A stretch of 63,602 nucleotides of DNA, the filler included, from Guillardia theta CCMP2712 (taxonomy: Eukaryota > Protista > Cryptophyta): assembly GCF_000315625.1 (NCBI RefSeq). It is 5 parts of 5 records of this genome, joined end to end, with 100 filler letters (N's around TTAATTAATTAA, not from the genome) between each part and the next. Parts side by side here need not be neighbours in the genome. Positions count along the whole stretch, not along the records: positions 36,723 to 60,102 come from NW_005434398.1; positions 60,203 to 63,602 come from NW_005434108.1; 3 more parts are not named here. One strand, 5' to 3'. The translations under genes were made by a program, and so were the position numbers. Positions 36,174 to 61,625 of this stretch are shown piece after piece. The notes under the pieces are model-generated. The model searched no databases. It was not told where the DNA came from and saw only the letters and a program-made list of their open reading frames with translations. The first letter of the stretch is position 1, and every line of letters begins with the position of its first letter.

Positions 36174-36741
36174 TCTCTCCTTTTCCGAAAGTTTTCACTT
36201 TACCAATTCCAAACCGGAAACGATTTCCATCAAGTCACAGTAGTACTTTTTTCGAGCAGACTTCCCTTGCAGTTTTGCAGCTGTGAGAAGATGGGTAGCT
36301 GGGGTCATGCTCGCCTTGTGCTTGACAGAACTGAGTTGCTCAGCACAATCGATGCGTAGATGATCTTTATGAAATCAGCACATGAACACCAAATCAATCA
36401 AGTCTCTGCTATGATCCTCATCTTGAGCTGGAGCGACGCCTCATCTAACCAGTTGTGTGCAGCGGCCGGTCTTTCAAATTTGAGGCTACACCCAATAGGA
36501 CTGACAATCTCAAGTTACAAAGGCGATGACAGCAGCAGTAAGCAGGAGGAGCAGGAGGAGCAGGAGGAGCAGGAGGAGCAGGAGGAGCAGGAGGAGCAGG
36601 AGCGAGGAGCGAGGAGGAGCGANNNNNNNNNNNNNNNNNNNNNNNNNNNNNNNNNNNNNNNNNNNNTTAATTAATTAANNNNNNNNNNNNNNNNNNNNNN
36701 NNNNNNNNNNNNNNNNNNNNNNTAGCCAATTTGCTGCTCAC

Positions 36742-37395: not shown

Positions 37396-37410
37396 AGAAA
37401 ACCTCTACCG

Positions 37411-38481: not shown

Positions 38482-39258
38482 GGACTGGATCTCGCAGGGC
38501 GCTTCAAGATTCTTTCACTAAGTCAAAAAAAAAGGAGAGAATTCTATATATATTAATATTAAAGAGAGTAACTGGTACAAATAAGTGTACCGCATATATA
38601 TGTAATTTACTCAATTATCAGTACTGATCGCCGGTACAAATTAGTACCAGAGTTTTGAACCTTAGGCATTTCAAACGATCACGCCAACAATGCGTGCAAG
38701 GTACTGAAACTATGCATGTTTCGCGATAAATGTGTCCATCAACTGCAATTTTTTCAAAGCCATTCATGTTCACCTTCAAGTTCATCATCTACACACACAT
38801 TCCAGGCTTCCAGGCTTTGGCTTTGCATGAACCTAAACTATCCTCTGGACTTCCCTCTTTCTTCACTCCTGTCTTTCTTCTGTCTAGTGCATATGATCAT
38901 GATGTTCCAATCCCTCCTCCTACCATTTGCTTCTGTTAATCTACACCCATCACCCCCCCCCCGCCCCTTCCNNNNNNNNNNNNNNNNNNNNNNNNNNNNN
39001 NNNNNNNNNNNNNNNNNNNNNNNNNNNNNNNNNNNNNNNNNNNNNNNNNNNNNNNNNNNNNNNNNNNNNNNTGGTAGGTTTCATCTCTCTTACTCTTCCC
39101 TCCCTCCCTCCTTCCTTGGCATTCATGATGGTTTCTTGCGAGCCTTCCCTCCCACTCCTCACAGACTATGCTTGCGACTTCTTTCCATCCACCTATCCCA
39201 ACCTCTCTTGTCCGCGTCTCTTTTGGCATCTTTATTTTATACCAAGCTTCAGTTCCGC

Positions 39259-42200: not shown

Positions 42201-42476
42201 TGCCATCGGTGCGTCGGGATCATTGAAAACGGACAGTATGTCAAACTCATCTCCTTCCCGCGTCCGTTTACGTGGCCTGCCACCCACCCCAAGTCTCTTG
42301 CCGCCTCTCTGACATGTTCCGCAATAGTCCCCTTGATCGCTATTAGCACGTTGAAAGGCACATAGAATATGGAATTTTTTTTGGCAACTTCGACATACCT
42401 TCAACTGTGCATCATCTCTTTCCCGCAACTGACAATCAGGTCCAAATAAGCATGTGCTGCCATTTTCAGTCGCCAT
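39259..42476 (-). mobile_element. Crypton tyrosine-recombinase transposon gene with N-terminal PHD-like zinc finger, two introns and one frameshift
   Basis: Tyrosine-recombinase residues CRS, TKTDQ, HSLRKG, RANW, QDRY. Removing introns 40985-41033 and 40896-40945 gives GPGAPTVYIRANWKIGDTQDRYI. Also GDQFAGRILAG...LPPHF and HMVPSNFTFP...WW..G..IRPF. Frameshift near 41718. Confidence 0.88.
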
Positions 42477-43726
42477 GTCACCCTATGTTGATGCTGCGTG
42501 TTTTCAGTTCCGATGATATATCGCGATGTTTTGCCCCAATCCTGCAATGTGACCAGGCCCAATCCTGAAGACTGGTGTAAGATGGAAGGGATTGCTTGGC
42601 AAACAGCGAGAAATGAGTGCATACCGGATGATGAAGGATGAAATAAGCTGGAAGGCGACGATGGAATGCTTGTGGTGCTCTTGGTTGTACCACTTGGTTG
42701 TACCACTGTGGTAGTTTGCATTGTAGCACCGGTACTTTCAAAATGTAAACGTTACCTTCACCCCTTCTGCAGTGGGTTTTAGATGGGGTATCAATTGACC
42801 CACCCCATGGGATTACAGGCATGTATCACCCCCCACCCCCCTTCCTTCCTACTTGTGCGATCCTCTATCACTGTGTTTTTCTTTCCCTTGTGTACCGGTC
42901 GTACTGAAAATTAGTACGTCATATCGCAGTTTTCAAGGGCGTCAGTATGTAAAAGGACAATTGAAGGACCGGTCCCTATTAATCATTTTATCCCCCGATG
43001 CCAGCGCTCTAAAACATAAATAGACAACAAATTGGGATTTTAGGGCACTTTTTTCAAATTTTACCAAAAAAGAGAATCCTAAGCTTTTTTTGGAGGCGCC
43101 CTACATCTTGGGATACAAGAAATTCAAATTAAATTCGCGTTGTAAGCTCGCGGTACATCAAATTGGCCTCTGGTACAAATTATTCATCGTACATTAAATT
43201 GCCTCTGGTACAACAATTTCATGGTACATTAATTCGAAAAGCTCTCGTTTCAATAGTCGGTGGAAATTGTGGGTGTATTCCACCAACTTTTGAATTTGCA
43301 ATTCTGGGTCCGAGGTCCCATATTTGATTTACTCAATTTTTTGATGTACCAGCATTCCACCTGTAATTGGCGTACCGAACACGCCTACTACCCCATAATA
43401 AACTAGACTTGAAAAATTTCAGACCCCCCCGGGGAGGGTTATTTTGGTACCATATCCCCCCTAGATGGAGCAAGGTTGGAACGTATTTATACGTTTTGGG
43501 CATATTCCGGGCCTCTCCGGCGATCGCGGGTATCACCGGGACAAACAGCTAGCAAATATGTAAATTTCAATGGAGAACTCGAGTTGTGCAGAGTCGGCTG
43601 GAAACGGCTCGTACATCCCCGTTGCGTTACACTACTACTGACCATGTTAGTCTTAGGAATGCCTCGTGTACATTCTCGGAAGCTCTCAAGGCATCCACCA
43701 TTATGACATTTGGAGCGAGCTAAACA

Positions 43727-44878
43727 TTGCTTTTGTTTATTCCCTGTGGAAGTGTTTGCTTCTTTTACGCTATGAGGAATGTGAATGTGTTTCTTTGTTT
43801 TGTTCTGTTGTGTTACTGGTCGATTGGTACGAAATTTTTATACTTTGCACCGTATTCGCTGACTACAAACTTGGTACAACTTTCTAAATTTGAAAATGCC
43901 AGCATCGTGAAACAATTACCATTGTTCCAGGATGTCGGTCTTTCATGCAATGTCGACTTGAATGATCGGAGCCTTTCTCAGCCCTTCATTTTTGTTATGT
44001 TCGGAACCCGAGCATTCTTACCCTTGATATTAAATTGGCTGTGCAATACATTGTTGTTTTCCGGTATACACAATAGGACTGTAATCATCGTAGATGACTA
44101 TTTTAGCTCGAATGCATTGTCGTCTTACAACGTTGGGTTGTGTATGACTTCCAAGCTTCATTTAAATCACACTGGTTTTCACTACAACACTTTCGGTTAC
44201 TGGCAGTTGGTCCAGCAAAGAGTTCGCATAATTGAATACCTCACAGCACTGAAAATTCCGATCCTCCTTTTTGAGCCAGATGCTTTGTGGGTTCGAAATC
44301 CTTTAGAAGATGATGAGCTCATGAATGCTGAAGAAGATCTTGTGGGTTTTAATGATGATGGCAATTTTGGTTTTGGGTGGCTGAGGTTGACTACTTCCGA
44401 ATCTGTTCATGCATTGATGCAAGCAGTACGTATTCAATTTGACAAACAATTACAAAATGTTGTGAACTTAGATTACAATCATCCTCTTTCTATGGCAGGA
44501 GAGCAACATGTCATGGTTAACCTTCTGAAAAATCGAAAGAAAGAGGCTGGATTTTCCAACATAACCACAAGAATGTTGACGGAATGCAAATATCTGAGTG
44601 GCAAGTGGTATGACGGAGGCAGGGGGGGCAATGGAGAGTCAGTGAGGAAGAAGTGTAATGGTTTTCCTGTGGTGATCAACAATAATTGGATCGTGGGCAA
44701 TGAGGCTAAAATAGCACGTGCAAAACGTTGGGGCCATTGGTTCCTCCCAGATGATCTGAACGGTACGTGTGGTTCAACAAGGTTTTTGGAGGGTGCCATG
44801 TATCGAATGCGCCACTCGATTAAGACTGCAAAACCTTTCAATGGGCCACCTCGGCAGGATGAGTGTCCGCTCTGCTGA
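43727..44878 (+). CDS. Nucleotide-diphospho-sugar transferase (GT77 / Nucleotid_trans-like), type II membrane
   Basis: N-terminal TM; LNWLCN, Y..L...RV, LLFEPDALW..NP, EQ, SGKWY and NNWIVGNEAKIARAKRWGHWFL. Confidence 0.85.
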   Translation: MLLFIPCGSVCFFYAMRNVNVFLCFVLLCYWSIGTKFLYFAPYSLTTNLVQLSKFENASIVKQLPLFQDVGLSCNVDLNDRSLSQPFIFVMFGTRAFLPLILNWLCNTLLFSGIHNRTVIIVDDYFSSNALSSYNVGLCMTSKLHLNHTGFHYNTFGYWQLVQQRVRIIEYLTALKIPILLFEPDALWVRNPLEDDELMNAEEDLVGFNDDGNFGFGWLRLTTSESVHALMQAVRIQFDKQLQNVVNLDYNHPLSMAGEQHVMVNLLKNRKKEAGFSNITTRMLTECKYLSGKWYDGGRGGNGESVRKKCNGFPVVINNNWIVGNEAKIARAKRWGHWFLPDDLNGTCGSTRFLEGAMYRMRHSIKTAKPFNGPPRQDECPLC

Positions 44879-45403
44879 GTAACAATTCAGAAACTGGATT
44901 CTGCAAAACAATTAAACATCTACGAAGCTGCACGTCTATTTTTGAGTGATCCAGCATCACTTGCCTCGTTTGAGCTCTCGCATCTTACAAATCAGCTTCT
45001 GCGTCTCTTCTAACGAAGAATCAGGGAAATCACCCGCTGGCCCACGTGCAACCATACTTTCAAGATACGTGAGGAGACATGCACAAAAAACTATGTCAAG
45101 AGTCATCAAGATATTTGTTCTGGTCGTCACGTTCTTGAATTTTTCTTTCAGACTGATGACACAAGGAGACATCAGATCAGTCCAAATGAAGACTAAGAAA
45201 GCTCTCCATGTCCTGAGATGGAAACTTGGAGGAGATTTTAAAGTTTGTGATTAGCGGAGCTGCCGTCTTCATGAATCAGACGGATGGATGCCCCATATAG
45301 AACCTGAAGCACATTGCGCAATTGCTTTTTATTGTTTTGCTTGCTATCAGGGTCACCTACATTGAGAAGCAAATCTCAGCAAACGAGCGAGTAATAGGAA
45401 AAT

Positions 45404-46504
45404 TTAGCGAATTGGTCGAATATATTTAGGATTGAAAAACCAATTGCTTCTAACAAAATTGCCGTAGTAAGTATATTTTTGCGATTGAAGGAATGCAATG
45501 ACTTCCCTTTCCTTCTGTCGATCCAGCCCTTCTGCCTGCGGCCAGACTGAATGAGTCGCGAAAAATATAACGAAACAAGCAAACCTCTACGAGTATGACC
45601 GAAAATGTGTGAGATTCGAAATCAATGGTTTTCAAAACCTGCATTCAATCGTAAGGATCACCTATCTATGTACGAAAATATTTACCTCCAACTCACCGCC
45701 TTCAACATCTAAAGATAGCATATCAACATGGACAATAGCAAACATGTTGAGCACATATTCTAGTGGTACACACAGAATCTTAGTGAGCTGATAAGTGCGA
45801 TGCCATCTGTAACAAATTTTCATAACTGACAATGAAAAATGAAGTTCGACTCACCCTCGGAGAAACTGAGGGGACATAAATTGCAAAATCCCTTTGACTG
45901 CAGGATGTCCGCTTGTGACATAATCAACTACCGAAAGATTTGAACAAACAGCAGCATGAACTAAGATTTGACTCGGTCGATGGCTCACGAGCTTTGCAAA
46001 ATTAGAAGGATCGGCTTCGATGAGCAAGCCATGCCATCCAAAACTCTTTTCAAAAGCATGAGTATTGGAAAATGTCAAACCATCCAAAGCTCCGAGTTCT
46101 ACAAACGTTCCATTCCCTGCAAGACGTTTATGTTTGATTGAAGCGGAAAAAAAATTGCGATAAGCAAATTCATCCTCCCCACTCTGACTTCGCATGTGTA
46201 GTAGACTTCCATTTCCTGTTCGACTCCTTGGACGAGACAACATTTGCAATAATGGAGCATGTAATGTTCCACCTTGAAATTCTCCGAACAAACTTATATC
46301 AACCTTGTTGATGTTTGACCATTGTGATGACTTTGCGGGAGTCCCGACCAAATCACAACTACATTTCCTCAAACGAGTCGATGAACAAAGAGTCTCGAAA
46401 ACGAATCCGAACATGATGCTCGCGAGAAAAGCTGTTACAAGAGTAATGAGCAAACATCTTTTGAGATCGGGAGTCCGCACTTGATGTGGACATGCTAATT
46501 CCAT
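45404..46504 (-). CDS. FkbM-family (Methyltransf_21) SAM-dependent methyltransferase, 4 exons
   Basis: SQSGED, FVELGALDG..FSNT..FE...GWHGLLIEA. Spliced continuation gives VDMLSLDVEGGELE|VLKTIDF..VILVE|AEG...NWFFNPKYIRPIR*. N-terminal TM anchor. Confidence 0.88.
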
Positions 46505-46563
46505 AACCGGTGAAATCCTCGCACAACTGCCGGCGTGAACATAAAAAACCCAAGAAATTGTTT

Positions 46564-46762
46564 ACCGGTCACGGCCGCCCGGAGACATCAGCCGCCCGGA
46601 GACATCAGGCCCCCGGCCAATCTCCGGACACTTAGCCTCCTGGCGGGCCTCCAGGGGGTCTGAGGCGGGGCTGAAGGCTGCAGTCGGTCTACTGACGGGC
46701 CCGGCCGGCAGGATCCGTCGAGAAACAGGGGGGTCAAGGGAGGTTTTCTTCCCCCTGGGAGA
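46564..46762 (-). repeat. Inverted copy of part of the 332-bp terminal repeat unit
   Basis: Reverse complement matches TCTCCCAGGGGGAAGAAAACC...GGCCGTGACCGGT of the array at 58.5-59.9 kb, with a small internal duplication. Confidence 0.95.
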
Positions 46763-46914
46763 TTCCTCTTCCGTCCTCGTTTCTTCGGAGCCACCGGTTG
46801 ATGCATAACCCCAGGCATCGATTCCATGGAGTCATGGGATTGCTGCGAGAGGCGGAGGAATTCTGCCATAGAGACGCGGCTGTCCCGCGAATCATCCCTA
46901 TGAATCTCCTCCAT
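46588..46914 (-). pseudogene. ORF truncated by, and reading into, the left repeat
   Basis: Unique N-terminus ending in NLS-like PKKRGRKR, then repeat-encoded LPGGRKPP... Confidence 0.45.
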
Positions 46915-47009
46915 GGCACCGATGGCTTGGGATATTCAAGGGTCGCAAGACCAAGCGCGTCGTAGTATTCAAAAAAGATCCCTGAAACCCTGCATGTGGG
47001 CGGGAATTG

Positions 47010-47205
47010 CAACCCGAGTAGCTGTAAAGTTTTTAGGATGGGTCAGGCCAACCCTGCCCGACGGGCCAGACGCTGCAGAATAGCTGTAAAATTTTTCGAT
47101 CGTGTAGTAATGAGCATCGGGCCAACCCTCAGGCCAAGCCAACCCTCCCCGGGAAGCTGTAAAATTTTTCATTGAGTAGTAAAAAGCGACGGGCCAACCC
47201 CCAGC
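47010..47205. repeat. Three imperfect ~65-70 bp iterated units with AGCTGTAAA(A/G)TTTTT and GGCCAACCC cores
   Basis: Cores at ~47020, 47082 and 47155; GCCAACCC occurs four times. Confidence 0.8.
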
Positions 47206-47290
47206 CACAAAAAACACACGCCAACGAATAAGGTTATGCGCCCCGAGCCCGGCGATCCTATTTGACCAGGCCTCCCGTGCGACTCACAAG

Positions 47291-47590
47291 ATGTACTTTA
47301 CACATTCCAACGGAGAGAGGGTCACCATCGGGAGTGACAGCCGGTTGACGGACCTGGAGGTGTTCATGAGGGCCAAGCCGTACCTCAACCGTAAGCTAAA
47401 CATCCACTACGGCAGCGGTCAGAGGGTAAGGGTGTACGACGAGCCCGAGCTCTCCGTGGTCAGCCGCATGGTTGCGGCCTACTACAATTTCGAGCTAGAG
47501 CAAGATTCCGATCTCTTCGAAGACCCTATCTTCAAGTCTAGCCTGTGGAACACATGCCTCTTTGCCCAAAGCGAGGACGGTCGGGGATAA
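47291..47590 (+). CDS. Hypothetical virus-like protein (may continue by frameshift to 47730)
   Basis: ATG ORF of 99 aa with TATTTGA at 47259-47265 upstream; an overlapping frame 47545-47730 continues past the stop. Confidence 0.6.
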   Translation: MYFTHSNGERVTIGSDSRLTDLEVFMRAKPYLNRKLNIHYGSGQRVRVYDEPELSVVSRMVAAYYNFELEQDSDLFEDPIFKSSLWNTCLFAQSEDGRG

Positions 47591-48022
47591 TCCCCGTCGA
47601 TGAGGCCAGGCAGGATGTCCATCATGCAACGGACAATGCGAGCAGTGAAGGTGAGGATGAGATCGGCCAATGCGAGGAAAAATACCGTAAGTGGCGACAC
47701 CTATTTATGAAATGCGGCATTGCGTTCTGATGAAGAGGGAGCAGCAGTAATCCTTGAAGTTCTCATATGTGCTAAGGCATGAGGTAGACTCACAAATCTC
47801 CTCCTCCACCGCCACATCCTTCGTCGCACACACGATGCCGCGCAGCTCTGATACAAAATCCGACGCACTCATCTGAGGCCGGCCCGGCATTGCTTGCCCC
47901 TACGCTTGCCGTTGAGCCCCGCGACCGTTTTTTTTTAAAAAAAAAAGAATTCAAATCCCCCTCCGGACCCTTTTTTAAAAACAGGGCCGCCACTGGCCAT
48001 TCCCACGCACCACCTACCACGC

Positions 48023-48289
48023 ATGGCCACCACGCCGCAGCTCGCCCCCTGGCTCATCAAGTCGCTCAACGAGGACACCATATTCGTCAAGCTTGCAAGA
48101 AAGGCAGAATGCAGCGAGGATGAGGACGACTTCGACGGGATCCTGTCCCCGCTGCCGACCAAGGTTGATCTGCAGGTGCCAAATACCCCAGTGAAGAAAA
48201 GGAAGACCTTCACGCCGATCCACTCGCCGGTAGAATCCGACGCCGAATCCTCCTCCCTATCCGACTCGGACTTCTCCTTGAATGAATAA
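48023..48289 (+). CDS. Small acidic/Ser-rich protein with NLS-like TPVKKRK
   Basis: 88-aa ATG ORF, upstream TTTTAAAA, AATAAA overlapping the stop. Confidence 0.6.
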   Translation: MATTPQLAPWLIKSLNEDTIFVKLARKAECSEDEDDFDGILSPLPTKVDLQVPNTPVKKRKTFTPIHSPVESDAESSSLSDSDFSLNE

Positions 48290-48309
48290 AAAAAAAGGGA
48301 TGCATATGC

Positions 48310-48460
48310 ATGCAGGGTACCTTTGACGGGAATTTCAGCACCTGTGTGATGTGCGGCCCTGGGTTTGTCTATTCTTTGAACACTTCGACTTGCCAGGATG
48401 TCAACGAGTGCTTGGACGCTTCTCTCTGCCCGGCCAACTCCACCTGCATCAACACCTATG
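48310..48460 (+). pseudogene. Calcium-binding EGF-like domain fragment
   Basis: CGPGF......CQDVNECLDASLCPANSTCINT, broken after NTY and joined out of frame to the next ORF. Confidence 0.7.
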
Positions 48461-51400
48461 TGCGTGATAGAACCGGGTCAGACCTACGGCGCCTGCTCCT
48501 GCTTCCTTACCAAGGTCACCCCGCAGTCCTGCACGGCGTCGCAGGTGGGGCATTCGGTGAACTATAAGCTCTCCGGGCTATGCATGGCGCAGGTGACCAG
48601 CAGCATGGGCGGGTTCAGCGCCGCGTCGAGCTCCACCAACACGATCAGCTACAAAAACCTGCTGGCCACACCCTGCTACAACGCCGACCCGGCCAATATG
48701 TACTGCTACAGCGTCTACAGCTCGGCGTTGAGCTACTCCCCCATGCTGGTCTCCTTGGGGGTGAGCGGGATATCAGGGTCGGGTGGTCAGGGGCCCTACG
48801 GTAGGCGACTGCTCGGCATTGACGACGGGCCAGAGTTCTTCAGCCATGACGATGCATGCATGGACGCATGGGATGAGTTCCTTGCTACCAACAAGAGCAC
48901 AAGGGTGATGGCGGGCTGTGTCACCCGCTTTGCCGCCACTTACGACGTTGTTTCCCAGCACGGCATGTTAGACTACATCCCACCGAATATGTTTGTCAGC
49001 TGGTCGGACTTCATTGCAACCGTGGGAGAGAGACCAGAGTCCCTTCTTATCCTGCTCTACTCGCCAAGGATGGCGGTCGACCTTATCTTCAGGACTCCCA
49101 CCTTCAACCGCCTTTACCGGTACTACTTCATCTGGGTGTCAGCTCTGTCCGATGCCTATTTCGACATTGCCGTGCATAAGAGGCTCGACGCCAACGGCAG
49201 CCTGCACTACGAGGTCGACGCGGATGGTGGCGTCTTCATCAACGGCCACAATATCAGTGAGATGACGCTGATACTGCTCAACCTGCTCCACGGCGCGCAC
49301 CGCCACTTCAATGCCACGGAGACAAACCACACCCTGAGCCTCGCGGTGAGGAACAGGGAGTCGGTCAGGAAGCTCCTCTCGATGACGAGCCTCTCGCCCC
49401 TCGCCACCGAGCTCCTGTACAACGGCAGCGGGGTGGAGGAGAGGGTCACCCTACGCCACCTCATGCAGTTCACCTCCTGGAAGACACAGATGAAGGAGGT
49501 CCAGAGGTTCACGGGCTCCACGGCCCTGAACAACGGCGTCCAGCAATCCGTGGGGACGGCCACCGATGCTGCCTGGGTGAACAGCCCCTTTGCATGGCCC
49601 ATCAACTACGACTTCGGCGGGACGGTGCTCCAATGCCAGCTTCCATTACGTCATGATCTTGAATTACTCAATAATGCATCTGGTACAAAGGCTGGCCCAG
49701 TGGGCCAGATCCAATTAGTCCTGAGGGGGGCATAGCTTGCCGTCCGGGGTCCAGAAGCACACATATCTGCTTTAGACTACCCTCCTTTCCCCTATCAAAT
49801 GTCGGGTGGTGTAGCACTACCCCGTTTGTGGTTGTGAGGTCCTTCAAGGGGGGTAGACGAGGCAAATTGAGGCTGTTCTTGGAGCCTGTTAGTACCGGAT
49901 CTCGAGCTCCTCGTACAGTTCTAATACGCTTTTAAGGCGATTTCAGGGTGATGGTGAACTGTGTTCCACCCCCCCGCACCCAACAAACGGCTAGTTTGAA
50001 TTTACATGCATGAGTACCCCCATTTTAACCCCAGGTTCTCTTGGGAATGCGAGGGTAGGTGATTGGAAACAAGACACCTCCACCCCCTGCTTTCCAAGTT
50101 TGAAATATAGAAAAAGGGGGTAGGGGTCACCCCTTTCCTTCACTTTCCCCAAATCCCCCCTCCCTCGACCAAGCAAGAGATGGCGAACCGATCCCTTGCT
50201 CGCGCGCGACAACCAATTTGAATGGTGAGAGACTTCGAATCTATGTGTACTGTCATGTGGATGAATAGAAAACTTCTCTTTGAACCTATCCATAATGGTT
50301 GAGAACCACTCTTGGATTCCAAGAGGAAAGAGAAGATTTGAATCTGAGTTCGTTGAGTTGCTTGTGAATACAAAGAAGCTTTGAAGCATGGTGAGAATAG
50401 TTTTAACTGTATGTTAATGATGATGTTTGCTTTCTTGATCTTGTGATGGTGTAAATATGCATCAAATACTGTTTTGAGCGGCAAGGATTCAAATTTGCAT
50501 GGTTACATTATCCCAACAAGCATGTCACTTGCCTTCTTGTGTTTGCACTGAGACGCCTCGATGATGATGTATCTTAGTTATATAAGCGATTTTCACACTT
50601 TGAGAAGGAAAACATGAGGAAAGTGGATCAGGGTGCGATGAGAGATGCAACCTTCGAATACTTGATGGAAATGCGATCCTCCTTGTTGCGTTGCCACCCT
50701 AGCATCCTGGTACCAGAATGCTACGTGAGATGAAAGTGAAGCAGATTTGAAGATACTTGCTGTTGCTTTTCTATGTTTGTGATGGATTTGAATCAGGTGA
50801 ACGCCAAAGAAAGTGGCGTCACCAATGATGCTTGCACATTGTATGCAGATGTATGTGACTCTCTCTCTGTTGGTGACATTCATTTCATGCAATGAGGAAC
50901 TTGCACGTCACATACTCTAGCATGGTACTATGCATGTGATAGCGTGCAACTGTTTCATTCACAGGGTAGCTTCAATAAAGTCAAATCATCACATCCTTGC
51001 TGGTTAGATTCGTCTTACATGCCAATGCTCGTCGCCATGTAATTCTTTACATTCTTGTGCTTGTGGCTTTGTTAAGCAGCCACACTCCACCATGCCGGGC
51101 ACTGAGCCTGGCATCGTGCACATGATGGTCATACATATAGCTTTACAAGCAACTAATCGAATAGGCAAACAAAGATGAAGAAAGCATGAGACATCAGCTG
51201 CCTCCAGACAAGGTTAGCTCTCTGCCAGCGAACGCATCAGCCACTTGAAAGCTGAATCATGATTGAGATCGCCAGAATTGTCTGTCGCACTGCAGTTGAT
51301 TTTTGAAAACAACTCTCATGAGCTGTACTAGCCATTCCTTCTCTCAGAGTCTTCTCTCATGCGATTCCATTGCCGAGGAGTTTTCTCTCGTGCTTTCAAG

Positions 51401-53431
51401 TATTGATAGTTGAAGGCTGGACTTGAATGCCGGGCGTTGTGCATCAGTGCACTTCTCTGAGCAGTGGAAGCAGAGCCATTGCAACAAGCCCATCACAGCT
51501 AAGATGATAAATCTGTCGGTGAAAGAAGTTCAAAGCCAAAGAGGACGGAAGGTGTAACTTGCGGTTTGGAATAAATCTACAGCCAGACACGAGTCTAACT
51601 TGTACATAGTCATAATTGTGACAATTGTACGACATGTATGAATGAAATATATTCTATTGATGTTACTTTGTCTAGAACAAGAACATGCATCTGAAAGGTT
51701 GTAGTGTAATCCCAACATTTTACACATGCGAAGCATCATTATCTAATGTCAAAATATAATGAGGTAGCGATGCAAATCATGATGAAAACTTCAAGACGTT
51801 TGAATTCGGACTGGCATCTTGCATGGCGCCACAGATGATTCAAATCATGAAGTGCAGATCTTGAAAATCTCGAGGTGCTTGCACTAAAGCGGCTTGACAA
51901 CTATCGTTCAGCTTCATTCTAACTCAGAAGAAGACGCTGCCTGTTCCAAACATCTCCAAGATTGCATCAATCTCAAGTTTTTCATTCATGCCAAACCAGC
52001 ATTCTCAGCCTTCAATCCCATGAGAAGCGATAATCGAGGTGTGACGTACCTCTACGCAATCATACTCCTTCACCACCTGCTTCAGACCTCCATTTCTTCA
52101 TGTCAGACTTGATACTTGTTTGCTTTGAACGAAGAACACAAATGCCTGTTGCTTCAGCTCTTGCATGCGCCGACGCCATGCATCATGGAGGGCGCTTCGG
52201 TACTGCGTGCCGGCGTGTAGATGGCGACATGTCGGGCGTGTAGGGGAAGCCGGGGAGTACTCGAAGTCAATTTGAAACTGGATTTGAAATTTTACATACT
52301 TGTAAACAGTACCAGAAAGCAACTTTAAAACCTGTAGTAGACCACCCCACCCCACAATTTGATGTGTTTGCGAACAACCCCGTTCAGGAAGAAATGGACC
52401 AAATTTCAAGATCATGACGTAATGTGTCGAGGTCGGTTGTGCTGGTCAAGGATGCGTTCACCAACACCTCGCTCTACTACACCAACGGGCATGCCCTTGC
52501 CGCCACCCCCAGGGCTATCGTGTCGGGCAGTTGGCCCTTCAGCAACCTCCCCTACCGCGGCCCCGTCCCCCCGCTCAAGCAGCCGGCGAATCAGAACTTC
52601 TTCAACATGATCGTGTATCAGGCGACCGTGTGGATCGACAATACGCCCTTCAATCGCCAGTTCTTGTATGACCTGTTCGGGGCATTGCCTGGCGAGATCC
52701 TCGACCTATCCAAATGCGACAGGCAGGCCGTGATGCTCTGCACTCGCCACCACTACACCCTGCTGGTATCCGGCTTCGTGATCGCGGTGGTATGGATGGG
52801 GCTGTCACTGGTTCTGACGTCCTTCCGCATCCCCCACATCACAGCCCTGCTGTGGACCACATACCCGGCCATCGTGGTGTATTATGCCTTTGGCGTCTCC
52901 CCGCTTTGCTTCCCGATGATTCCGACCTGTCTACTGGAGGACCTTGTCAATGTCCTCAATTTCTTCTTCCCCGCCACCATCCAGTTCCCCGACAGCCTGC
53001 AGGCAAGCCCGGGGTGCCTTTCCAACGCTCATAATTCCACGGAGAGGGCGGCCTGCATCCTATCCTGCTCCCAGCAGCCCTTTGATTATGTATCGTGGGA
53101 GGCGGAAATCTCCTGGTGGACCTGCCTCGTATCCACGGGTCTCTGCAGGTCGGTCGATAGCTTCGTCACCAGCCGCCCCGTCCTCAACAAGCTCACCTCC
53201 CTGCACAAGAACCTCGCAGTCAAGGCCGCGATTGTGGAAGGCAACAACATGGATATGATCGTGGCGCAGTCGGCATGCGCCACCCTGAACATCTGGAGGA
53301 TCATACCCCTCATCATGATCCTCTTCCTCGTGTTCTACGCCTTCAGCGTCATCGCTACCTTCCCCTTCTTCCTCTTCAATGAGGTCATCAGGCTGGCGAT
53401 CCAGAGCGTGATCATGACGCACACGGACTAG
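48459..53431 (+). pseudogene. Large Cys-rich multi-pass membrane/surface protein interrupted by an insertion (segments ~48459-49643 and 52425-53431)
   Basis: Removing 49644-52424 joins ...CAG CTT C|TG TCG AGG... in frame (QCQLLSRSVVLVK). Cys-rich ectodomain, GRRLL motif, N-glycosylation sequons and C-terminal TM helices. Confidence 0.8.
49644..52424. mobile_element. Non-autonomous TIR element, perfect 20-bp TIRs, no TSD
   Basis: CATTACGTCATGATCTTGAA (49644-49663) and TTCAAGATCATGACGTAATG (52405-52424); AT-richer, ORF-poor interior. Confidence 0.88.
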
Positions 53432-53488
53432 TTATTGAATGGTGGTCTTTACTTAGAACCTTACAGAATCAGAGCCTACGTCCAATGC

Positions 53489-53845
53489 CTAATAAAAGAT
53501 AGACAGGAGCAAGGAGTACAACTCCTCGTCGGTGGTCGGGACAACGAACTCGAATGGCTCGAGGCCATGCAGACTCCTCAGCCTCTTGATGCTGTGGTGC
53601 AGGCTGAGATAAGCTCGGATGAGCGCAATGAAGTTAGCACGGTTGGCAGGAAGGACGTGGATCCTCTTCGCAACCTCATTCAGCTGCTTGCGAGTGGGTT
53701 TGCAGTTGTGCTTCAAGTCCAGATGCAAGACGATGATGCATCGCAATTCCTCCTTCGTGCTACGAGCAAGTCTCTCGTAAATAGAGATTTGTTCACCTCT
53801 GGCCTGATTCCTGGTAGTAGAGTCTGTTTGACTGCGTGTGATCAT
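53489..53845 (-). CDS. Small basic protein, tandem paralogue 1 (MITRS... family)
   Basis: Aligns with 53946-54299 (MITRS.T..T.RN..R, KPTR.QL..VA..I, EELYSL.LS); TATTTAA ~39 nt upstream. Confidence 0.75.
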   Translation of the reverse strand: MITRSQTDSTTRNQARGEQISIYERLARSTKEELRCIIVLHLDLKHNCKPTRKQLNEVAKRIHVLPANRANFIALIRAYLSLHHSIKRLRSLHGLEPFEFVVPTTDEELYSLLLSIFY

Positions 53846-53883
53846 TTGAAGAAATGAACCGTGCCGGTAGAGAGTCGGGTGAC

Positions 53884-53890
53884 TTAAATA
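53884..53890 (-). promoter_or_regulatory. TATTTAA box
   Basis: Conserved with its downstream leader in both paralogues; the same motif lies upstream of other island genes. Confidence 0.55.
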
Positions 53891-53945
53891 TTGAATGGTG
53901 GCTTTTATTTGTAAGCTTACAGAATCAAAGACCAATATCTCATGC

Positions 53946-54299
53946 CTAATCAAGCACAGACAGGATCAAGGAGTACAACTCCTCCGCGGAGTCAGCGAAA
54001 ACCAACTCATATGGCTGATTTCGATCTAGACCCATCAGCGACCGGATCTTGTAGTCATTGTAATGGACAAGGAAGATGCGGTTCAGGAAAAGACCACGTT
54101 CGCAAGGACATCCGTAGATCTTCCTCGCGACCTGCATAAGCTGCTCACGGGTGGGTTTGCCTCTCTTCATGTTGGAATGGAAGCGGACAACCTTTCGGAT
54201 GACTTCCTTCTCATGCCGAATATGTTGCTTGTATTGTGATACCATCGTATCTCTGATCTTATTCCTTCTGGTTGCGTTTGTTTTACTGCGTGTGATCAT
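53946..54299 (-). CDS. Small basic protein, tandem paralogue 2
   Basis: As for paralogue 1; same spacing of TATTTAA (54338-54344) to the ATG. Confidence 0.75.
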   Translation of the reverse strand: MITRSKTNATRRNKIRDTMVSQYKQHIRHEKEVIRKVVRFHSNMKRGKPTREQLMQVARKIYGCPCERGLFLNRIFLVHYNDYKIRSLMGLDRNQPYELVFADSAEELYSLILSVLD

Positions 54300-54337
54300 T
54301 GTAGGAAATGAACCGTGCCAGTAGAGCATCGACTGAC

Positions 54338-54344
54338 TTAAATA
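54338..54344 (-). promoter_or_regulatory. TATTTAA box
   Basis: Same position relative to the ATG as at 53884. Confidence 0.55.
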
Positions 54345-54433
54345 TCGCATCGAAATCTCGGCATGTGTAACAAAAAAAATCGATCCATCCCCTGCGCTCA
54401 AGGTGACACTGACTCATCGGTGCTTTGAGATGC

Positions 54434-55411
54434 ATGCAAGTGAGTTGCGATGAGTGCTTCGTCTGCAAGCGCTGCCGGGACGGAAGGGTGTCGAGATGCA
54501 AGGCGTGCAGGCCCTGCTTAGACTGCAGTGATCAGAGGGTGAGATGTTGGAGGGGGGTCAGCGCTCCGTTCCTCCTCCCGCGGGGGTTGAAGGGGCATCG
54601 GTGCGACTGGCAGACCATCGATATCGACCTTGCGGGTTGCAGAGAGTGCGGTGCCATCCATCGCTGCGATGCATCCTCCTGCCCCGTGTCCGAGGAGAAT
54701 GACAGCCATGTATGTCTCATCACGGGCAACTGCGTGAGGATGAAGAGGTTCACGAGGGACGAGTTCATGGACAGCGTGGTGATCATGGACCTGCCCGAGG
54801 CGATGGATAGGGAGGTCAAGCTGCTTGTCGAGATGCGGGAGGTGAAGGATAAGGTGGAATGGATCCTTATGTCCTCCACGGCCCTTCAGAGCTTCGACCA
54901 GGAGCGTGGGCGTATGGAGCAGAAGCACCGCCATCTGATGTGGAAGGCGTTGAGGGAGGTGAAGGTGCAGGGGAAGATCCCGAACCTCTGCGAGGTGATG
55001 ACGAAGATACTGTATGCCACCAACAAGATCAGGGTCTGCAGCAACACCTTCCAGGAGGACCTCCGCTCCCTCATCTCGGAGCGCTGCACCCACAGCATCA
55101 CCCGCTTCCTGAACATGATGGGTCAGAGGTTCAAGAGCGTGCTTTCAAGTCTGAAGAGCACCGTGCTCATCATCGGGACGCTATACCTGATGCGCATGGG
55201 CATATCGATGAACAACATCATCCTGCTTCCCCGCATTCCCCAGCTTCAGCTGCTCCTCCCCATCGAGACACACCTCAAGAGCTACTTCCACGTCAAGTGC
55301 AAGAGCATCACGGAGGTCGAGAACATGATCAAGATGTGCCTCCGGGGGCTGAGCTCGGGAGAGCTGGAGAGAATGGGCTTCACCGTGGTGGAGAACGGGG
55401 TCGTGGTGTGA
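54434..55411 (+). CDS. UL92-like (herpesvirus late transcription factor family) Cys/His-rich protein
   Basis: CRECGAIHRCDASSCPVSEENDSHVCLITG = C-x2-C-x3-H-x-C-x4-C-x10-C-x2-TG. Extra N-terminal CxxC repeats, intronless, AATAAA just after the stop. Confidence 0.7.
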   Translation: MQVSCDECFVCKRCRDGRVSRCKACRPCLDCSDQRVRCWRGVSAPFLLPRGLKGHRCDWQTIDIDLAGCRECGAIHRCDASSCPVSEENDSHVCLITGNCVRMKRFTRDEFMDSVVIMDLPEAMDREVKLLVEMREVKDKVEWILMSSTALQSFDQERGRMEQKHRHLMWKALREVKVQGKIPNLCEVMTKILYATNKIRVCSNTFQEDLRSLISERCTHSITRFLNMMGQRFKSVLSSLKSTVLIIGTLYLMRMGISMNNIILLPRIPQLQLLLPIETHLKSYFHVKCKSITEVENMIKMCLRGLSSGELERMGFTVVENGVVV

Positions 55412-55849
55412 GAGCCAATAAAATGTTTCAATCGGTACTGGGTGCTGGTGGTCGGGAGATTCTCCCCAAGCCATGCAGTACCAATTTGCGGTGAGGAAAA
55501 TGGTGAAAGGCGCTGTCTTCTGCCCGTTCTGCCATTGGCCCCCACATCTCAGGCCCTGGAGGCGCTGCCCCTGCCCTTGGGCGAGGCTCATACCGGCCTT
55601 CCAGGGCGCAAGGCGCGGGTGCGAGCCGAAGAGGAAGGAAGGATAGAGATTAGGTTTTATTTTACTTCTTCTCGCGAAGACTTAATAAATGATCGTTGCA
55701 TTTGAGGATGGCGTAGATGGCCTCTGAGAAGAGGCAGGCTTCGGATCGCACGTGCAATACCTTTTCTTCGCTGCTCTCCTTGCCGTCCAAATCTTCGTAC
55801 TGCGCGACATCGTAACACGCTGTGACCTCTAAGTGTTAAATACACGGGT

Positions 55850-56221
55850 CTAAAAGAATCCCCAATGCCTCCGCTTCTTGACGCGCACGATGTCCACCTC
55901 GGTCAAGGTCACCGGGGCGGTGGAGCTGAGGACCTTGACGTGAAGGGCGATCCTCTTCCCCTCGAGGGGCACGACGCCAACGTTCTGAACCCTGACGGGG
56001 TTTGCGTCGCGTATGAGCTGCAGGTCCGAGAGGCTCAGGATGCTGTCGGAGGTCTTGGCGATGATGACGAAGCCATCCTTGGAGGTGCGGACCTCGTAGT
56101 CGTGGAAGCATAGGTCCCTGGAAAGACCCTGCATCACCGCTACCACGTTCTCGATCACCACCCTGTCATCGGCCTTGATGCCAGAAAGCATGCCCTCCAT
56201 CGGGAGCACCGCACTTGCCAT
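55850..56221 (-). CDS. Hypothetical virus-like protein with a basic C-terminus (VKKRR)
   Basis: Intronless ORF, ATG at 56221, TATTTGAA at 56248-56255. Confidence 0.7.
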   Translation of the reverse strand: MASAVLPMEGMLSGIKADDRVVIENVVAVMQGLSRDLCFHDYEVRTSKDGFVIIAKTSDSILSLSDLQLIRDANPVRVQNVGVVPLEGKRIALHVKVLSSTAPVTLTEVDIVRVKKRRHWGFF

Positions 56222-56332
56222 TGATGACGATGGCCACACCTGAAGGGTTCAAATAGCTGCATTCGCGTGGGAGTGGTTTGCATGTGTGTTCTTGTTTTTT
56301 AATATCTATAACAGAAAGGTCTATCCTACCTA

Positions 56333-57655
56333 CTACTTGAAGATCCATCCGCAGCTTGCATAGAAGAATGCCATCAGGGCGATGAGCATAGCTGGGGACA
56401 TGATGATTACATCCAGACTTGGGTCATAGATGCCAGGCTTCAAGAAGCAACCCATGGTGTTGGAGACGGTGCGCACGTTGGCGGTGCGGTAATAAACCAC
56501 GCCGATGCTGAAGAGGGGGAGAACGCTTTGTATGACCATGTCGTCATCGCTGAGCAAGGCCAAGACGATGCAGTTCACCGCAACGATGATGTATGTCACG
56601 ATGCGGCGAGAGTAGAGTACGTACTCGGAAAGATAGGGTGCTACCTCCCATAGGCGCACCTTGTTGATGTTCCCGTGGTTCCCGATGCAATTGTTTGCAG
56701 GCTTGTCCTCGGTGTATTGCATCTCGCCCCTCATATCGTTTGTAATATTTGGGATGTACGGTATCTTGTTGTATGTCTGTGATACGGATACCATGAAGAC
56801 ATTGAAGCACAAGCAGGAGTACACCATGGAATAGATGAACATTGAGATATACTTGGTGACTATCTCATCGATCATACCCTGGCGCAGATTGTCGTAGTAA
56901 TACATGTTCTGCTTCAGTTGCTCGAACGTGTCAATGTCATTGCTGGAAGATTTTTTAGACACCACCATCTTCTTGTACATCTGATCCAGTTTCGACTGAT
57001 AGTAACTGGAGTATTGCTGCGATTCGTCGATGAGCAAGTCGATCTCGGCAGCCTCACGAGCTGTTTTGTGCAGGAATGTATACCCCACCATCAGCGTCAA
57101 TGTGCAGTACATCAACAAGGTGAAGTGAACCCAGCAGTGATTGTAGAAAAAGAAGGTGTTGTATCCCGTCTCAGAACCCACCTTTATCAGGCATGTTATA
57201 TGATTGTAGGCCATGCCCAACAAGTACCATCCGACCAGGTCAAACGTTATGAACATGACGATATCAACGTTCCCGCTGTTGTTCAGGTCCGTCGTCATCA
57301 GAAGCAGCGAGTAGTACAGAATCTGTAATATGGCTATGTATGGAACAATGTCCGGTATAGCCAAGTCGTAATAACTCCGCATAATGTACTCGAATTTGTA
57401 TTTGATTGCTAGGGTCATTAAAGCAATCAAGAGCTTCCAAAGGAGCATCAGGAACATGACCTTTGTCGGGTGAATGTAGAGGCTTAGCATGAAAGCGTTG
57501 CCGAGTAGGAAGTATCCGCCGACCGTGGAGGCATGTGAGACAAGTTGATCAACCTTGTCTTTTACCAGGTAGTACAATAGACCAGTCTTGATATCGGTTA
57601 TTTGTGTCCTCAACCATACAGGAACCATCCTGAGGTCCTTAGGGCAAATCAACAT
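56333..57655 (-). CDS. Multi-pass membrane protein of unknown function
   Basis: 440-aa intronless ORF with many hydrophobic segments; TATTTAA at 57660-57666 favours the ATG at 57628. Confidence 0.8.
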   Translation of the reverse strand: MLICPKDLRMVPVWLRTQITDIKTGLLYYLVKDKVDQLVSHASTVGGYFLLGNAFMLSLYIHPTKVMFLMLLWKLLIALMTLAIKYKFEYIMRSYYDLAIPDIVPYIAILQILYYSLLLMTTDLNNSGNVDIVMFITFDLVGWYLLGMAYNHITCLIKVGSETGYNTFFFYNHCWVHFTLLMYCTLTLMVGYTFLHKTAREAAEIDLLIDESQQYSSYYQSKLDQMYKKMVVSKKSSSNDIDTFEQLKQNMYYYDNLRQGMIDEIVTKYISMFIYSMVYSCLCFNVFMVSVSQTYNKIPYIPNITNDMRGEMQYTEDKPANNCIGNHGNINKVRLWEVAPYLSEYVLYSRRIVTYIIVAVNCIVLALLSDDDMVIQSVLPLFSIGVVYYRTANVRTVSNTMGCFLKPGIYDPSLDVIIMSPAMLIALMAFFYASCGWIFK

Positions 57656-57659
57656 TCAC

Positions 57660-57666
57660 TTAAATA
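57660..57666. promoter_or_regulatory. TTAAATA/TATTTAA box in a minimal divergent intergenic region
   Basis: Lies ~32 nt from the minus-strand ATG (57628) and ~37 nt from the plus-strand ATG (57703). Confidence 0.5.
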
Positions 57667-57702
57667 CTTTACAGCAGAAGTTGCGCCCACGTCATTGCAG
57701 GG

Positions 57703-58500
57703 ATGGAAAAAAGGCGCGCTCAAAACCCCGGCGCGGGGGACCAAATCCGTCCAAACCCCGAGACAGCGGTGCGCATGAGCCTGTGGAGCGACCCGCTCTG
57801 TGCGAGGGCGTTGATGCATCTCTGCATATGCGATAGGACATTTCTCCCAGGGGGAAGAAAACCTCCCTTGACCCCCCTGTTTCTCGACGGATCCTGCCGG
57901 CCGGGCCCGTCAGTAGACCGACTGCAGCCTTCAGCCCCGCCTCAGACCCCCTGGAGGCCCGCCAGGAGGCTAAGTGTCCGGAGATTGGCCGGGGGCCTGA
58001 TCTCTCCGATCCTCACCACCTTTATGGGGGAGCACTTCAGCATGTCGGTGAACATGCGAAAGTCCTACAACAGCCGGGACTACGAGGGGCTGCACCTTCG
58101 CCTCGACCCTGTAGAGAGCGCGAAGCTCTTCGATTACGCCATCGACCTGGTTGAACGCCGCGTGCCGTACAATTTCGCCGACCTGCTGTACCAACCGATG
58201 AAGGCCGTCCTCCCGGATAGCGGATTCTTTGAGGACGTCCCTAACGAAAGCTCCCTGCAGGTCAAGAAGGTCTTCTGCTCCCAGGCTTTCGTCCTAGCCC
58301 TGCGCAACAGCCTGCACAACGACGACCTCGCCGGGGCACTCATCGACGAGAGCCCAATCCAGCGGAAGAAGCTGCTCTGGAGGCTGATCAGCGAAAACAG
58401 CCGGCTCTGCACTCCCAGCGACCTCTACCATATCATCAGGCCTTACTGCAGGAGAGTGGACATGGACCGGCTCCGGCACGGCCATTTGTCTTACACATAA
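57703..58500 (+). CDS. Permuted papain-like NlpC/P60-type protein, disrupted in frame by a repeat copy
   Basis: PYN...KKVFCSQ...NSRLCTPSDLY motifs; 57835-58007 is repeat-derived. Confidence 0.55.
   Translation: MEKRRAQNPGAGDQIRPNPETAVRMSLWSDPLCARALMHLCICDRTFLPGGRKPPLTPLFLDGSCRPGPSVDRLQPSAPPQTPWRPARRLSVRRLAGGLISPILTTFMGEHFSMSVNMRKSYNSRDYEGLHLRLDPVESAKLFDYAIDLVERRVPYNFADLLYQPMKAVLPDSGFFEDVPNESSLQVKKVFCSQAFVLALRNSLHNDDLAGALIDESPIQRKKLLWRLISENSRLCTPSDLYHIIRPYCRRVDMDRLRHGHLSYT
57835..58007 (+). repeat. Internal direct copy of half of the 332-bp unit
   Basis: Identical to AGGACATTTC...GATCTCTCC of the array units. Confidence 0.95.
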
Positions 58501-58539
58501 TCTATGAAATACCTACGGAGTGGCTCCTAGACTCCTTCA

Positions 58540-59940
58540 TGGCCGGGGGCCTGATCTCTCCGGGCGGCCGTGACCGGTCAGCGGACCGTGTCAGCAGGCC
58601 CGTGACATGTCAGCCGGCTGACAGGGGCCGTGACCCGGCTGACAGGCTCACCTGACCGGTCACGTGACACATCACGTGACCGAGACAAGACTTTTTTATA
58701 TCGCAGATCCAAAAACCCATAGGACATTTCTCCCAGGGGGAAGAAAACCTCCCTTGACCCCCCTGTTTCTCGACGGATCCTGCCGGCCGGGCCCGTCAGT
58801 AGACCGACTGCAGCCTTCAGCCCCGCCTCAGACCCCCTGGAGGCCCGCCAGGAGGCTAAGTGTCCGGAGATTGGCCGGGGGCCTGATCTCTCCGGGCGGC
58901 CGTGACCGGTCAGCGGACCGTGTCAGCAGGCCCGTGACATGTCAGCCGGCTGACAGGGGCCGTGACCCGGCTGACAGGCTCACCTGACCGGTCACGTGAC
59001 ACATCACGTGACCGAGACAAGACTTTTTTATATCGCAGATCCCAAAATCCCATAGGACATTTCTCCCAGGGGGAAGAAAACCTCCCTTGACCCCAGGGGG
59101 AAGAAAACCTCCCTTGACCCCCCTGTTTCTCGACGGATCCTGCCGGCCGGGCCCGTCAGTAGACCGACTGCAGCCTTCAGCCCCGCCTCAGACCCCCTGG
59201 AGGCCCGCCAGGAGGCTAAGTGTCCGGAGATTGGCCGGGGGCCTGATCTCTCCGGGCGGCCGTGACCGGTCAGCGGACCGTGTCAGCAGGCCCGTGACAT
59301 GTCAGCCGGCTGACAGGGGCCGTGACCCGGCTGACAGGCTCACCTGACCGGTCACGTGACACATCACGTGACCGAGACAAGACTTTTTTATATCGCAGAT
59401 CCAAAAACCCATAGGACATTTCTCCCAGGGGGAAGAAAACCTCCCTTGACCCCCCTGTTTCTCGACGGATCCTGCCGGCCGGGCCCGTCAGTAGACCGAC
59501 TGCAGCCTTCAGCCCCGCCTCAGACCCCCTGGAGGCCCGCCAGGAGGCTAAGTGTCCGGAGATTGGCCGGGGGCCTGATCTCTCCGGGCGGCCGTGACCG
59601 GTCAGCGGACCGTGTCAGCAGGCCCGTGACATGTCAGCCGGCTGACAGGGGCCGTGACCCGGCTGACAGGCTCACCTGACCGGTCACGTGACACATCACG
59701 TGACCGAGACAAGACTTTTTTATATCGCAGATCCAAAAACCCATAGGACATTTCTCCCAGGGGGAAGAAAACCTCCCTTGACCCCCCTGTTTCTCGACGG
59801 ATCCTGCCGGCCGGGCCCGTCAGTAGACCGACTGCAGCCTTCAGCCCCGCCTCAGACCCCCTGGAGGCCCGCCAGGAGGCTAAGTGTCCGGGAGATTGGC
59901 TGGGGGCCTGATCTCTCTGGGGGGGCCGTGACCCGGTCAC
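58540..59940 (+). repeat. Tandem array of a 332-bp GC-rich, palindrome-rich unit (~4.2 copies, probably continuing into the gap)
   Basis: AGGACATTTC starts at 58721, 59054, 59413 and 59745; one unit carries a 27-bp internal duplication. Confidence 0.97.
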
Positions 59941-61625
59941 TCACCCGCGTAACATGCCCGTATCATGTCATCCAGCTGAAAGGGGACAGTGACACAGGAA
60001 AACAGCTCCCGTGACGGGTACGTGGCACCTCACCTTCCCAGCTCCGGACTTGAGGTATCGTCATCCCAAAGCCCAGGGAGGGTTGCGCGCAGGGGGGAAG
60101 AANNNNNNNNNNNNNNNNNNNNNNNNNNNNNNNNNNNNNNNNNNNNTTAATTAATTAANNNNNNNNNNNNNNNNNNNNNNNNNNNNNNNNNNNNNNNNNN
60201 NNTCTCCGATCACTTTCGTCAGCCCTTTGATACCCATGGCGCCCCGACACTGAGTACCCCTACCCACTACCCCCATCAAATTGATTGATGACCGGTGGTG
60301 GCTTCACCCTACCCCTACAAGAGGATGATTAAATTAAGGACCCGTAATGGAAATCTTATACCCGGTACTGAGAGCTTATTCAACGAGATTTATCAGGGGT
60401 ACTTATTCAACTGAATCAATTCATCACCCCTCCATTATGATTCATCGATATCAAGAACCCCCTTCCAACCATGGGTGTACCCTCTCTACCTAGTACCCAC
60501 CCAGCAGCTTCTGACTTTCCCCTTTGGGACAAGGAAAATTTCTTCAGTTTTTGACCGAAAAAGAGAAAATTCGGGAAATGGCCCGAAAGCTTTCTCTGGT
60601 CTACCATCTTCCTGGTTCACGGTCGTGAAGAGTCATCCGAAATAGGTCGCTGGGGTAGGGGTAGCAAATATGGGGGTAGGGGTGATAATATCACCGGTAA
60701 TTTTGGGTTTATTTTGGGCAAATATTGGTGGTAGGGGTACTTTTGTACCCAGAGGTGATTTCATCTGTACTTGATGGGTAAAGGTGCAGGCACCAGGGGG
60801 TGATACCATGGGGGGTGGGGTGTAAGAATTGCGGTGGTGGGTAGTATGAAATATTGTGGGGTGGGGTGGGTGTTCTTCCGCACAGAGACAATCAACAGAA
60901 CCGGTGGGAGGCGAGGAAGTTCATTTGAAAGGTGGGGGTACAATAGGAGCTAAAAGAAGGGGTCCATCATGGTCTGACTTGAACATGTATGTAGGGGTAC
61001 ATCAAATATTTTGTACATCAATCTAGGGGTGGTAGGGTCACTTTGCAACATTGTCGGGGTGGTCTTGAGATCAGGACAGCATGTCCATCTATTGTAGGGT
61101 ATGTATAGATAGGGTAGGGTAGGGAGAAAGGGGGGTAGGGTATTGTAAACGAAAGGTGGGGTACAGTTGCAGGGTAGGGTCCACAAGTTTAGCCATGCTG
61201 GCAGATCATCGACATAGGAGGAATCTGAGAGAAGGAGAGGAGAGGAGAGGAGAGGGGAGGGGAGGGAGGGAGGGAGAGAAAGATAGGCATGCAGAAGAGA
61301 AGAGAGAGAAGGAGAAGCACATGGTTGAAACAGGTACCACAGGCTAGAAAGACTTGGCAAGGAGGTGAAGAACGAGAATCACTGCGAAAAGCTGGCAGTG
61401 GTGATGAAGAAGGAAACATCGTAGAGGAGAATATTAAAAGGGAGGAACGTGGAGATAATTTGGAATAGCCAGAAGCCGTCAAGGAAAGCAACCAGTAGAA
61501 ATGCTTCTTCAAGCACAGCGTCGAAGTGAGGAGGAGTGGAGGGGGTTGACTTTTCTAATCAAACAACTTAGCAAGCCTCTCCTCTTTGACTTGTTCTCGC
61601 GCTTACAGTCTTGTCATCAGTTGTA

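Follow-up and report, generated by a model that had tools for sequence, protein, structure and literature searches.

We analyzed a stretch of 63,602 nucleotides (hereafter the window) from the genome of the cryptophyte Guillardia theta CCMP2712 and, within it, an island of virus-like genes extending from 46564 to 60102. In our judgment, this island is probably the broken, 11-kb remainder of a large DNA virus of algae, likely from the mirusviruses, situated at the edge of a host satellite array. A previous reading of the DNA sequence alone (the sequence-only reading) had proposed that part of a nucleus-type algal virus had integrated here with internal deletions, and this proposal is supported by gene order shared with a metagenome locus (L001), by truncation of a large membrane-protein gene, and by the splitting of that gene by a transposon.

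The island comprises nine intronless genes or gene pieces (Table 1), and not the dozen or so open reading frames (ORFs) first proposed; the segment at 49644-52424 is a 2.8-kb transposon that has no long ORF. Excluding transposon and repeat, 76% of the island is coding, and GC content at third codon positions was 0.59 to 0.85 for the eight island ORFs read in frame versus 0.33 to 0.44 for two ORFs of the flank. The inverted partial copy of a 332-bp repeat that forms the left border (46564-46762) and the tandem array of the same repeat on the right (58540 to ~60033, reaching a gap at 60103) were both confirmed at their coordinates, and a further partial copy, in direct orientation, occupies 57833-58008.

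The most readily identified gene of the island is the ORF starting at 54434, which matched the Pfam family UL92 (E = 4.9e-8, above the Pfam cut-off), thereby bearing out the UL92-type factor recognized earlier. Apart from a predicted intron, this ORF corresponds to the locus of gene model GUITHDRAFT_122062; two further G. theta scaffolds carry paralogues of ~68% identity, Hanusia phi has relatives as well, and a profile search of 1.84 billion representatives retrieved 487 relatives at E ≤ 0.001. UL92 belongs to the six-factor late set of beta- and gammaherpesviruses. In the available part of the published description, these six factors are drawn to a TATT box. Consistent with the shared promoter boxes and polyadenylation-type signals noted earlier, TATTT(A/G)A occurred within 60 nt upstream of five of the seven complete ORFs (shuffle mean 0.04; none of 20,000 shuffles reached 5) and AATAAA near four of the nine stops (2 of 5,000 shuffles), both exceeding shuffled sequence. 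The exact box was found at 2 of 11 ORFs in L001, and a TATA-like variant at 5 of 11. By analogy, the combination of a UL92-family protein and TATT-like boxes recalls the beta/gammaherpesvirus late-transcription system, with the differences that only one of its factors was found here and that the virus is not a herpesvirus; the two may be leftovers of a viral late-transcription system.

The viral affiliation of the island comes from L001, the one metagenome locus that was confirmed among 312 candidate stretches. L001 and the island share the UL92-like gene (61% identity) and the 123-residue ORF (56%) in identical order and orientation, and in L001 a heliorhodopsin gene (E = 3e-12), not present in the island, lies between the two. 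A nearby 1,230-residue ORF of L001 is a major capsid protein candidate by predicted structure. More specifically, a model of its first 1,200 residues (66-sequence alignment; mean predicted local distance difference test score [pLDDT] 65) retrieved herpesvirus capsids in all 24 of the Foldseek matches listed (best E = 8.4e-9, template modeling score ~0.25), and comparison with HK97-fold shells aligned 228 positions over residues ~85 to 1040 (top Z 13.7, root mean square deviation 3.9). The modeled protein therefore matches a herpes-like, HK97-fold floor domain carrying a large insertion; a search of Protein Data Bank (PDB) sequences with the capsid profile returned nothing significant. The capsid has 663 homologues, the nearest named relatives being from G. 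theta and Hanusia phi, and the G. theta protein, encoded elsewhere in the genome (GUITHDRAFT_118897), is 62% identical to that of L001.

In the accessible text of PMC10132985, heliorhodopsin is reported from 64% of mirusviruses versus 5% of nucleocytoviruses, and we assign L001 to the mirusviruses because both its HK97-fold floor domain with a large insertion and its heliorhodopsin fit the description given there. The portion of Zhao et al. that was available (PMC10827195) places G. theta capsids in mirusvirus clade E03. Sequence comparison thus makes it likely that the island derives from a mirusvirus. Two weaker links come from record labels only: the UL92-like protein P0006 and the capsid P0021 are perhaps co-located, and the Hanusia UL92-like and membrane proteins carry a common record number (666943). 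Querying IMG/VR with UL92, capsid, or NlpC-like sequences yielded no confirmed locus. The virus group can no longer be called undescribed, as the sequence-only reading had it, since clade E03 has already been reported from G. theta (PMC10827195, as far as its accessible part goes); endogenous mirusviruses are thus known in this alga, and it is the remnant itself that is probably undescribed. That survey concerns the same host and equally dense virus-like ORFs; it is, however, marker-based, the island has none of its five markers, and the accessible text mentions neither island nor repeat. As a separate observation, L001 (119-14803) is a partial cryptophyte-type mirusvirus contig that contains a 48-bp duplicated piece of a 126-residue gene at 11556-11603.

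Several features indicate that the viral segment has decayed. As in the sequence-only reading, which had recognized no capsid, DNA polymerase, terminase, or integrase gene, family searches of the island ORFs (Pfam and PHROGs, holding no mirusvirus-specific profiles) gave no match to polymerase, terminase, integrase, portal, triplex, or RNA polymerase, and a tblastn search of the window with the G. theta capsid P0285 gave none either, which fits deletion. The first 893 of the 1,626 residues of the Hanusia phi relative of the membrane protein are unmatched in the window, and the remainder is interrupted by the 2,781-bp transposon, which lacks a target-site duplication and is present in ~6 to 8 genomic copies. 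Of four trial junctions for its removal, only exact excision left one open frame, of 750 codons. By read depth, the viral genes are near single copy (~1.3 copies). For the ORF at 58009-58500, reads contained ~3 related copies with at least 37 differences, 31 of the 37 listed being synonymous and 6 more unlisted; as the differences are mostly synonymous, the related copies probably diverged as working viral genes, and the comparison suggests several related viral insertions in G. theta. In RNA run X8, a single run of which 6% was read and 157 reads were placed, depth was 0 in all nine bins over 53342-57830 and low but non-zero in the flank, so that the remnant is likely silent.

The nature of the 332-bp repeat was assessed by its abundance. 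A stretch of about one monomer accounted for 5.2%, 6.2%, and 5.8% of all reads in three chromatin immunoprecipitation (ChIP) libraries, X9 to X11 (1,316,942 of 25,484,495; 1,640,472 of 26,411,481; and 968,781 of 16,791,718 reads, respectively), and ~90% of the placed repeat reads were at least 99% identical to the monomer. Library X9 was taken as similar to unenriched DNA, its viral-to-flank ratio of 1.35 agreeing with that of 80/61 in the contig run X1. Repeat depth in X9 was ~189,000 versus 10.5 in the flank and 13 in a viral ORF, corresponding to ~15,000 to 18,000 copies, or 5 to 6 Mb; in the bin containing the left half-monomer, ChIP depth was ~30,000 per strand versus ~5 in the flank. Depths of X1 contigs over the repeat were also very high, although they represent sums and do not give copy numbers. 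At 46762 and 57833, loose read ends carried the sequence of the next monomer, indicating that the arrays run head to tail. Each monomer contains a 96-bp imperfect palindrome at monomer positions 30 to 125 (fold z = -4.8). The repeat had no match in Rfam, a 25-bp probe had no exact match in IMG/VR viral contigs, and the monomer had no meaningful match in L001; one match of the probe to an Azotobacter contig among prokaryote genomes was discarded as chance, with only 28 bp aligning.

We conclude that the repeat is likely the main satellite of the host and not a viral terminus. It has the properties of a satellite, namely very high copy number and a noncoding monomer in head-to-tail tandem, and its copy number is not tied to viral genome ends as would be expected of a herpes-type terminal "a" sequence (~15,000 to 18,000 copies vs ~1.3). 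On the same grounds, the earlier suggestion of herpes-type reiterated termini that mobilize the element does not hold. The sequence-only reading had itself named a generic host satellite as the finding that would speak against its proposal, and the repeat, at 5 to 6% of reads and head to tail, largely has this character. The satellite is also a candidate centromeric repeat of G. theta, and a satellite of this kind may already have been described as centromeric; the near-equal repeat share in the three libraries gave no sign of centromeric enrichment, and a literature search, outside whose reach most subscription papers lie, found nothing relevant on the G. theta centromere or a 332-bp satellite. 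Relative to the expressed flank, viral ORFs, transposon, and repeat were all 3 to 4 times higher in X11 than in X9, which fits a repressive chromatin state common to the three, the antibodies of X9 to X11 not being stated. In addition, one X1 contig joined an end of the 2,781-bp transposon to satellite sequence, so another copy of this transposon likely lies within an array.

Several points weigh against the interpretation of the island as a mirusvirus remnant in a satellite array. The mirusvirus label is one by linkage, through only the two genes common with L001; the ORF that would be a third positional match, of 440 residues, has no detectable homologue in L001; and no virion hallmark gene was found in the island. 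A fold search with the UL92-like model (pLDDT 58) gave no match at E ≤ 0.001, the best being E = 0.02. The narrow scope of the RNA run counts on the same side, the chromosomal location of the repeat is one that we infer, and neither the left repeat in full nor the right gap is bridged by any contig or read. Finally, the two half-monomers that flank the 11-kb core represent the same half of the unit, are inverted relative to each other, have breakpoints that differ by only 10 and 16 bp in monomer coordinates, and stop at the palindrome edge or shortly within it. Since a simple insertion into an array predicts direct flanks, it does not predict this arrangement, for which a fold-back rearrangement or preferential breakage sites can account.

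The half-monomers bear most directly on the possibility that repeat and virus are mechanistically linked, in that mirusviruses carry or target the satellite to integrate, or that the satellite grew from a viral terminus or origin, the half-monomers then being true element ends. On the monomer, the ends facing the island map to positions 180 and 190 and the outer ones to 23 and 39, coincidences with a chance of ~6% and 10% by hand arithmetic, and the unit shows strong self-complementarity. Telomeric repeats serve some herpesviruses for integration. According to the accessible parts of the respective reports, endogenous nimaviruses integrate at microsatellites, telomere repeats, or rDNA of their hosts (PMC10871703), thus resembling the island in placing large viral DNA in a tandem repeat, and AurliV-2 of Aurantiochytrium limacinum is mirusvirus DNA integrated in a protist chromosome between host rDNA units (PMC12606086). 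However, nimaviruses bring integrases of their own and retain complete genomes, as described in the same part of that report, whereas no integrase was found in the island, where targeting is a candidate only; AurliV-2, for its part, is given there as ~300 kb long and expressed, whereas the island measures 11 to 12 kb, is truncated and transposon-split, and yielded no RNA in one run. A link is further disfavored by the near-single-copy viral genes set against the thousands of repeat copies, by a further viral fragment (58009-58539) outside the inverted pair, by a difference at 46603, where the left copy disagrees with ~99% of reads and the internal copy carries the prevailing base, such that the arms are not identical twins, and by the junction of an unrelated transposon with the repeat, which indicates that arrays collect insertions generally. 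We therefore regard such a link as unlikely, and the specific proposition that the dominant G. theta satellite (~6% of DNA, possibly centromeric) serves as a mirusvirus integration handle, or was born from a mirusvirus genome end, as quite doubtful. If it were true, the inverted half-monomers, matched in phase, would be traces left by a still unknown mirusvirus integration mechanism, and would offer either a first handle on mirusvirus integration or an example of a virus giving rise to a major satellite.

We consider it improbable that a virus outside the mirusviruses (a nucleocytovirus or Polinton-like virus [PLV]) gave rise to the island, or that the island consists of host genes or is a misassembly. 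Late transcription factors of the UL92-like kind also occur in nucleocytoviruses, a VLTF3 entry appeared, non-significantly, in the UL92 fold search, and PLVs have been reported in G. theta; yet the nearest syntenic locus, L001, has an HK97 capsid and not a jelly roll, and Pfam and PHROGs, which divergent PLV proteins can escape, revealed neither jelly-roll capsids in the island nor a pPolB, packaging ATPase, or integrase. As for misassembly, there are assembly gaps beside the island, but single-copy contigs from the independent run X1 cover parts of it and of its left approach (43495-46577, 46735-47770, and 52532-57859), entering the repeat by 14 to 28 bases at three junctions, under the bridge threshold of 31 letters. 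Very improbable is an amplified defective viral replicon, in which concatemers of origin and packaging signal would be kept extrachromosomally by a persistent helper mirusvirus: the palindromic, origin-like monomer, the sequence uniformity of repeat reads, the mostly synonymous differences among viral copies, and the persistent mirusvirus episomes described for Aurantiochytrium in the accessible part of PMC12606086 would suit it, but the repeat share is similar in three 2026 libraries and repeat depth was very high in a 2021 run, X1 contains 15,557 variant repeat contigs, a single-copy contig joins repeat to host transposon, and RNA reads were absent from the core viral genes and nearly so from the repeat.

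We thus favor a mirusvirus remnant at the edge of a host array, and its history may have been as follows. The genome of a nucleus-replicating mirusvirus would have joined repeat-rich heterochromatin via break repair or recombination; rearrangements with neighboring satellite DNA would later have fragmented it, leaving half-monomers at the breaks; the transposon would then have hit the remnant, and the region would since have been silenced. On this interpretation, the island is one more mirusvirus remnant, devoid of marker genes, in a model alga that can be cultured. It also connects several orphan genes of G. theta, together with a TATT-like promoter box, to the mirusviruses of cryptophytes, and places a repeat worth ~6% of the DNA beside a mirusvirus remnant.

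Table 1. Genes, gene pieces, and repeats of the island, in window coordinates.
Feature	Coordinates	Strand	Remarks
Satellite half-monomer, inverted	46564-46762	-	Monomer positions 190 to 39, with a 17-bp duplication; left border
99-residue ORF	47291-47590	+	TATTTGA box 32 nt upstream; no family match
88-residue acidic ORF	48023-48289	+	Region with 2 to 4 related copies in reads
Short EGF-like fragment, other frame	48310-48450	+	Pfam matches under cut-off; deletion point in large membrane gene
Large viral membrane protein, middle part	48449-49643	+	62% identity to residues 894-1303 of 1,626-residue Hanusia phi protein
Non-autonomous transposon, 2,781 bp	49644-52424		Perfect 20-bp terminal inverted repeats; splits membrane gene
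Same membrane protein, C-terminal part	52425-53431	+	64% identity to residues 1299-1626 of Hanusia phi protein
Small paralogous ORFs in tandem	53489-54299 (53489-53845, 118 residues; 53946-54299, 117 residues)	-	44% mutual identity; TATTTAA 45 nt upstream of each
UL92-family putative late transcription factor, 325 residues	54434-55411	+	Pfam UL92
123-residue ORF	55850-56221	-	56% identity to same-position ORF in capsid-bearing locus L001
440-residue hydrophobic ORF	56333-57655	-	No family; same-place ORF in L001 not detectably related
Satellite half-monomer	57833-58008	+	Monomer positions 180 to 23; inverted relative to left copy
ORF with truncated 5' end	58009-58500	+	~3 related copies; 5' part cut off by satellite DNA
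332-bp satellite array, 64% GC, head to tail	58540-60102	+	~4.5 units, degrading into gap

Some ORF assignments were revised. Plus-strand ORFs at 53567 and 54063 were set aside in favor of the minus-strand pair, and an ORF starting at 57703 proved to be a chance read-through across the repeat, the real part beginning at 58009. This last ORF contains what we take to be a permuted papain/NlpC-P60-like motif. The NlpC/P60 protein placed in the island by the sequence-only reading is a putative motif resemblance with no significant database match: without its 5' part, the ORF matched neither Pfam nor PDB sequences, and its PHROGs match was non-significant (E = 0.06). The 123-residue ORF gave no usable feature match in the ESM Atlas, with weak structural matches only. 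In the noncoding left end of the viral segment (47020-47210), a short AGCTGTAAA-T-run motif occurs three times with GGGCCAACCC repeats nearby, and these motifs are possibly regulatory or origin-like.

The left flank (10 kb) does not show the abrupt switch from intron-rich host genes that had been described; it contains a transposase of the DDE_Tnp_4 family, a probable recombinase element, and two long ORFs without interruption. The first belongs to a Harbinger-like pair at 36679-38514, in which the transposase (E = 2e-18) faces a 367-residue ORF. On the minus strand of 39259-42482, three consecutive ORFs broken by stops or frameshifts had no Pfam match; they carry a tyrosine-recombinase-like motif, presumably that of a Crypton-like element. 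Between this transposon-like DNA and the island, at 43724-46561, are the uninterrupted, low-GC glycosyltransferase (Nucleotid_trans) and FkbM-like ORFs, which had some RNA reads and are possibly foreign cargo. Beyond the gap, 60203-61200 is noncoding, is rich in GGGGTAGGGG-like motifs, and resembles subterminal parts of the 2,781-bp transposon (one 17-bp exact match). Elsewhere in the window, an interstitial telomere-type (TAAACCC)n repeat of 5.9 copies is located at 22853-22893, and a host gene family of at least six members, some of them exact duplicates, occupies 8219-18237 and shares the terminal motif KMLEPHFGQTFKV.

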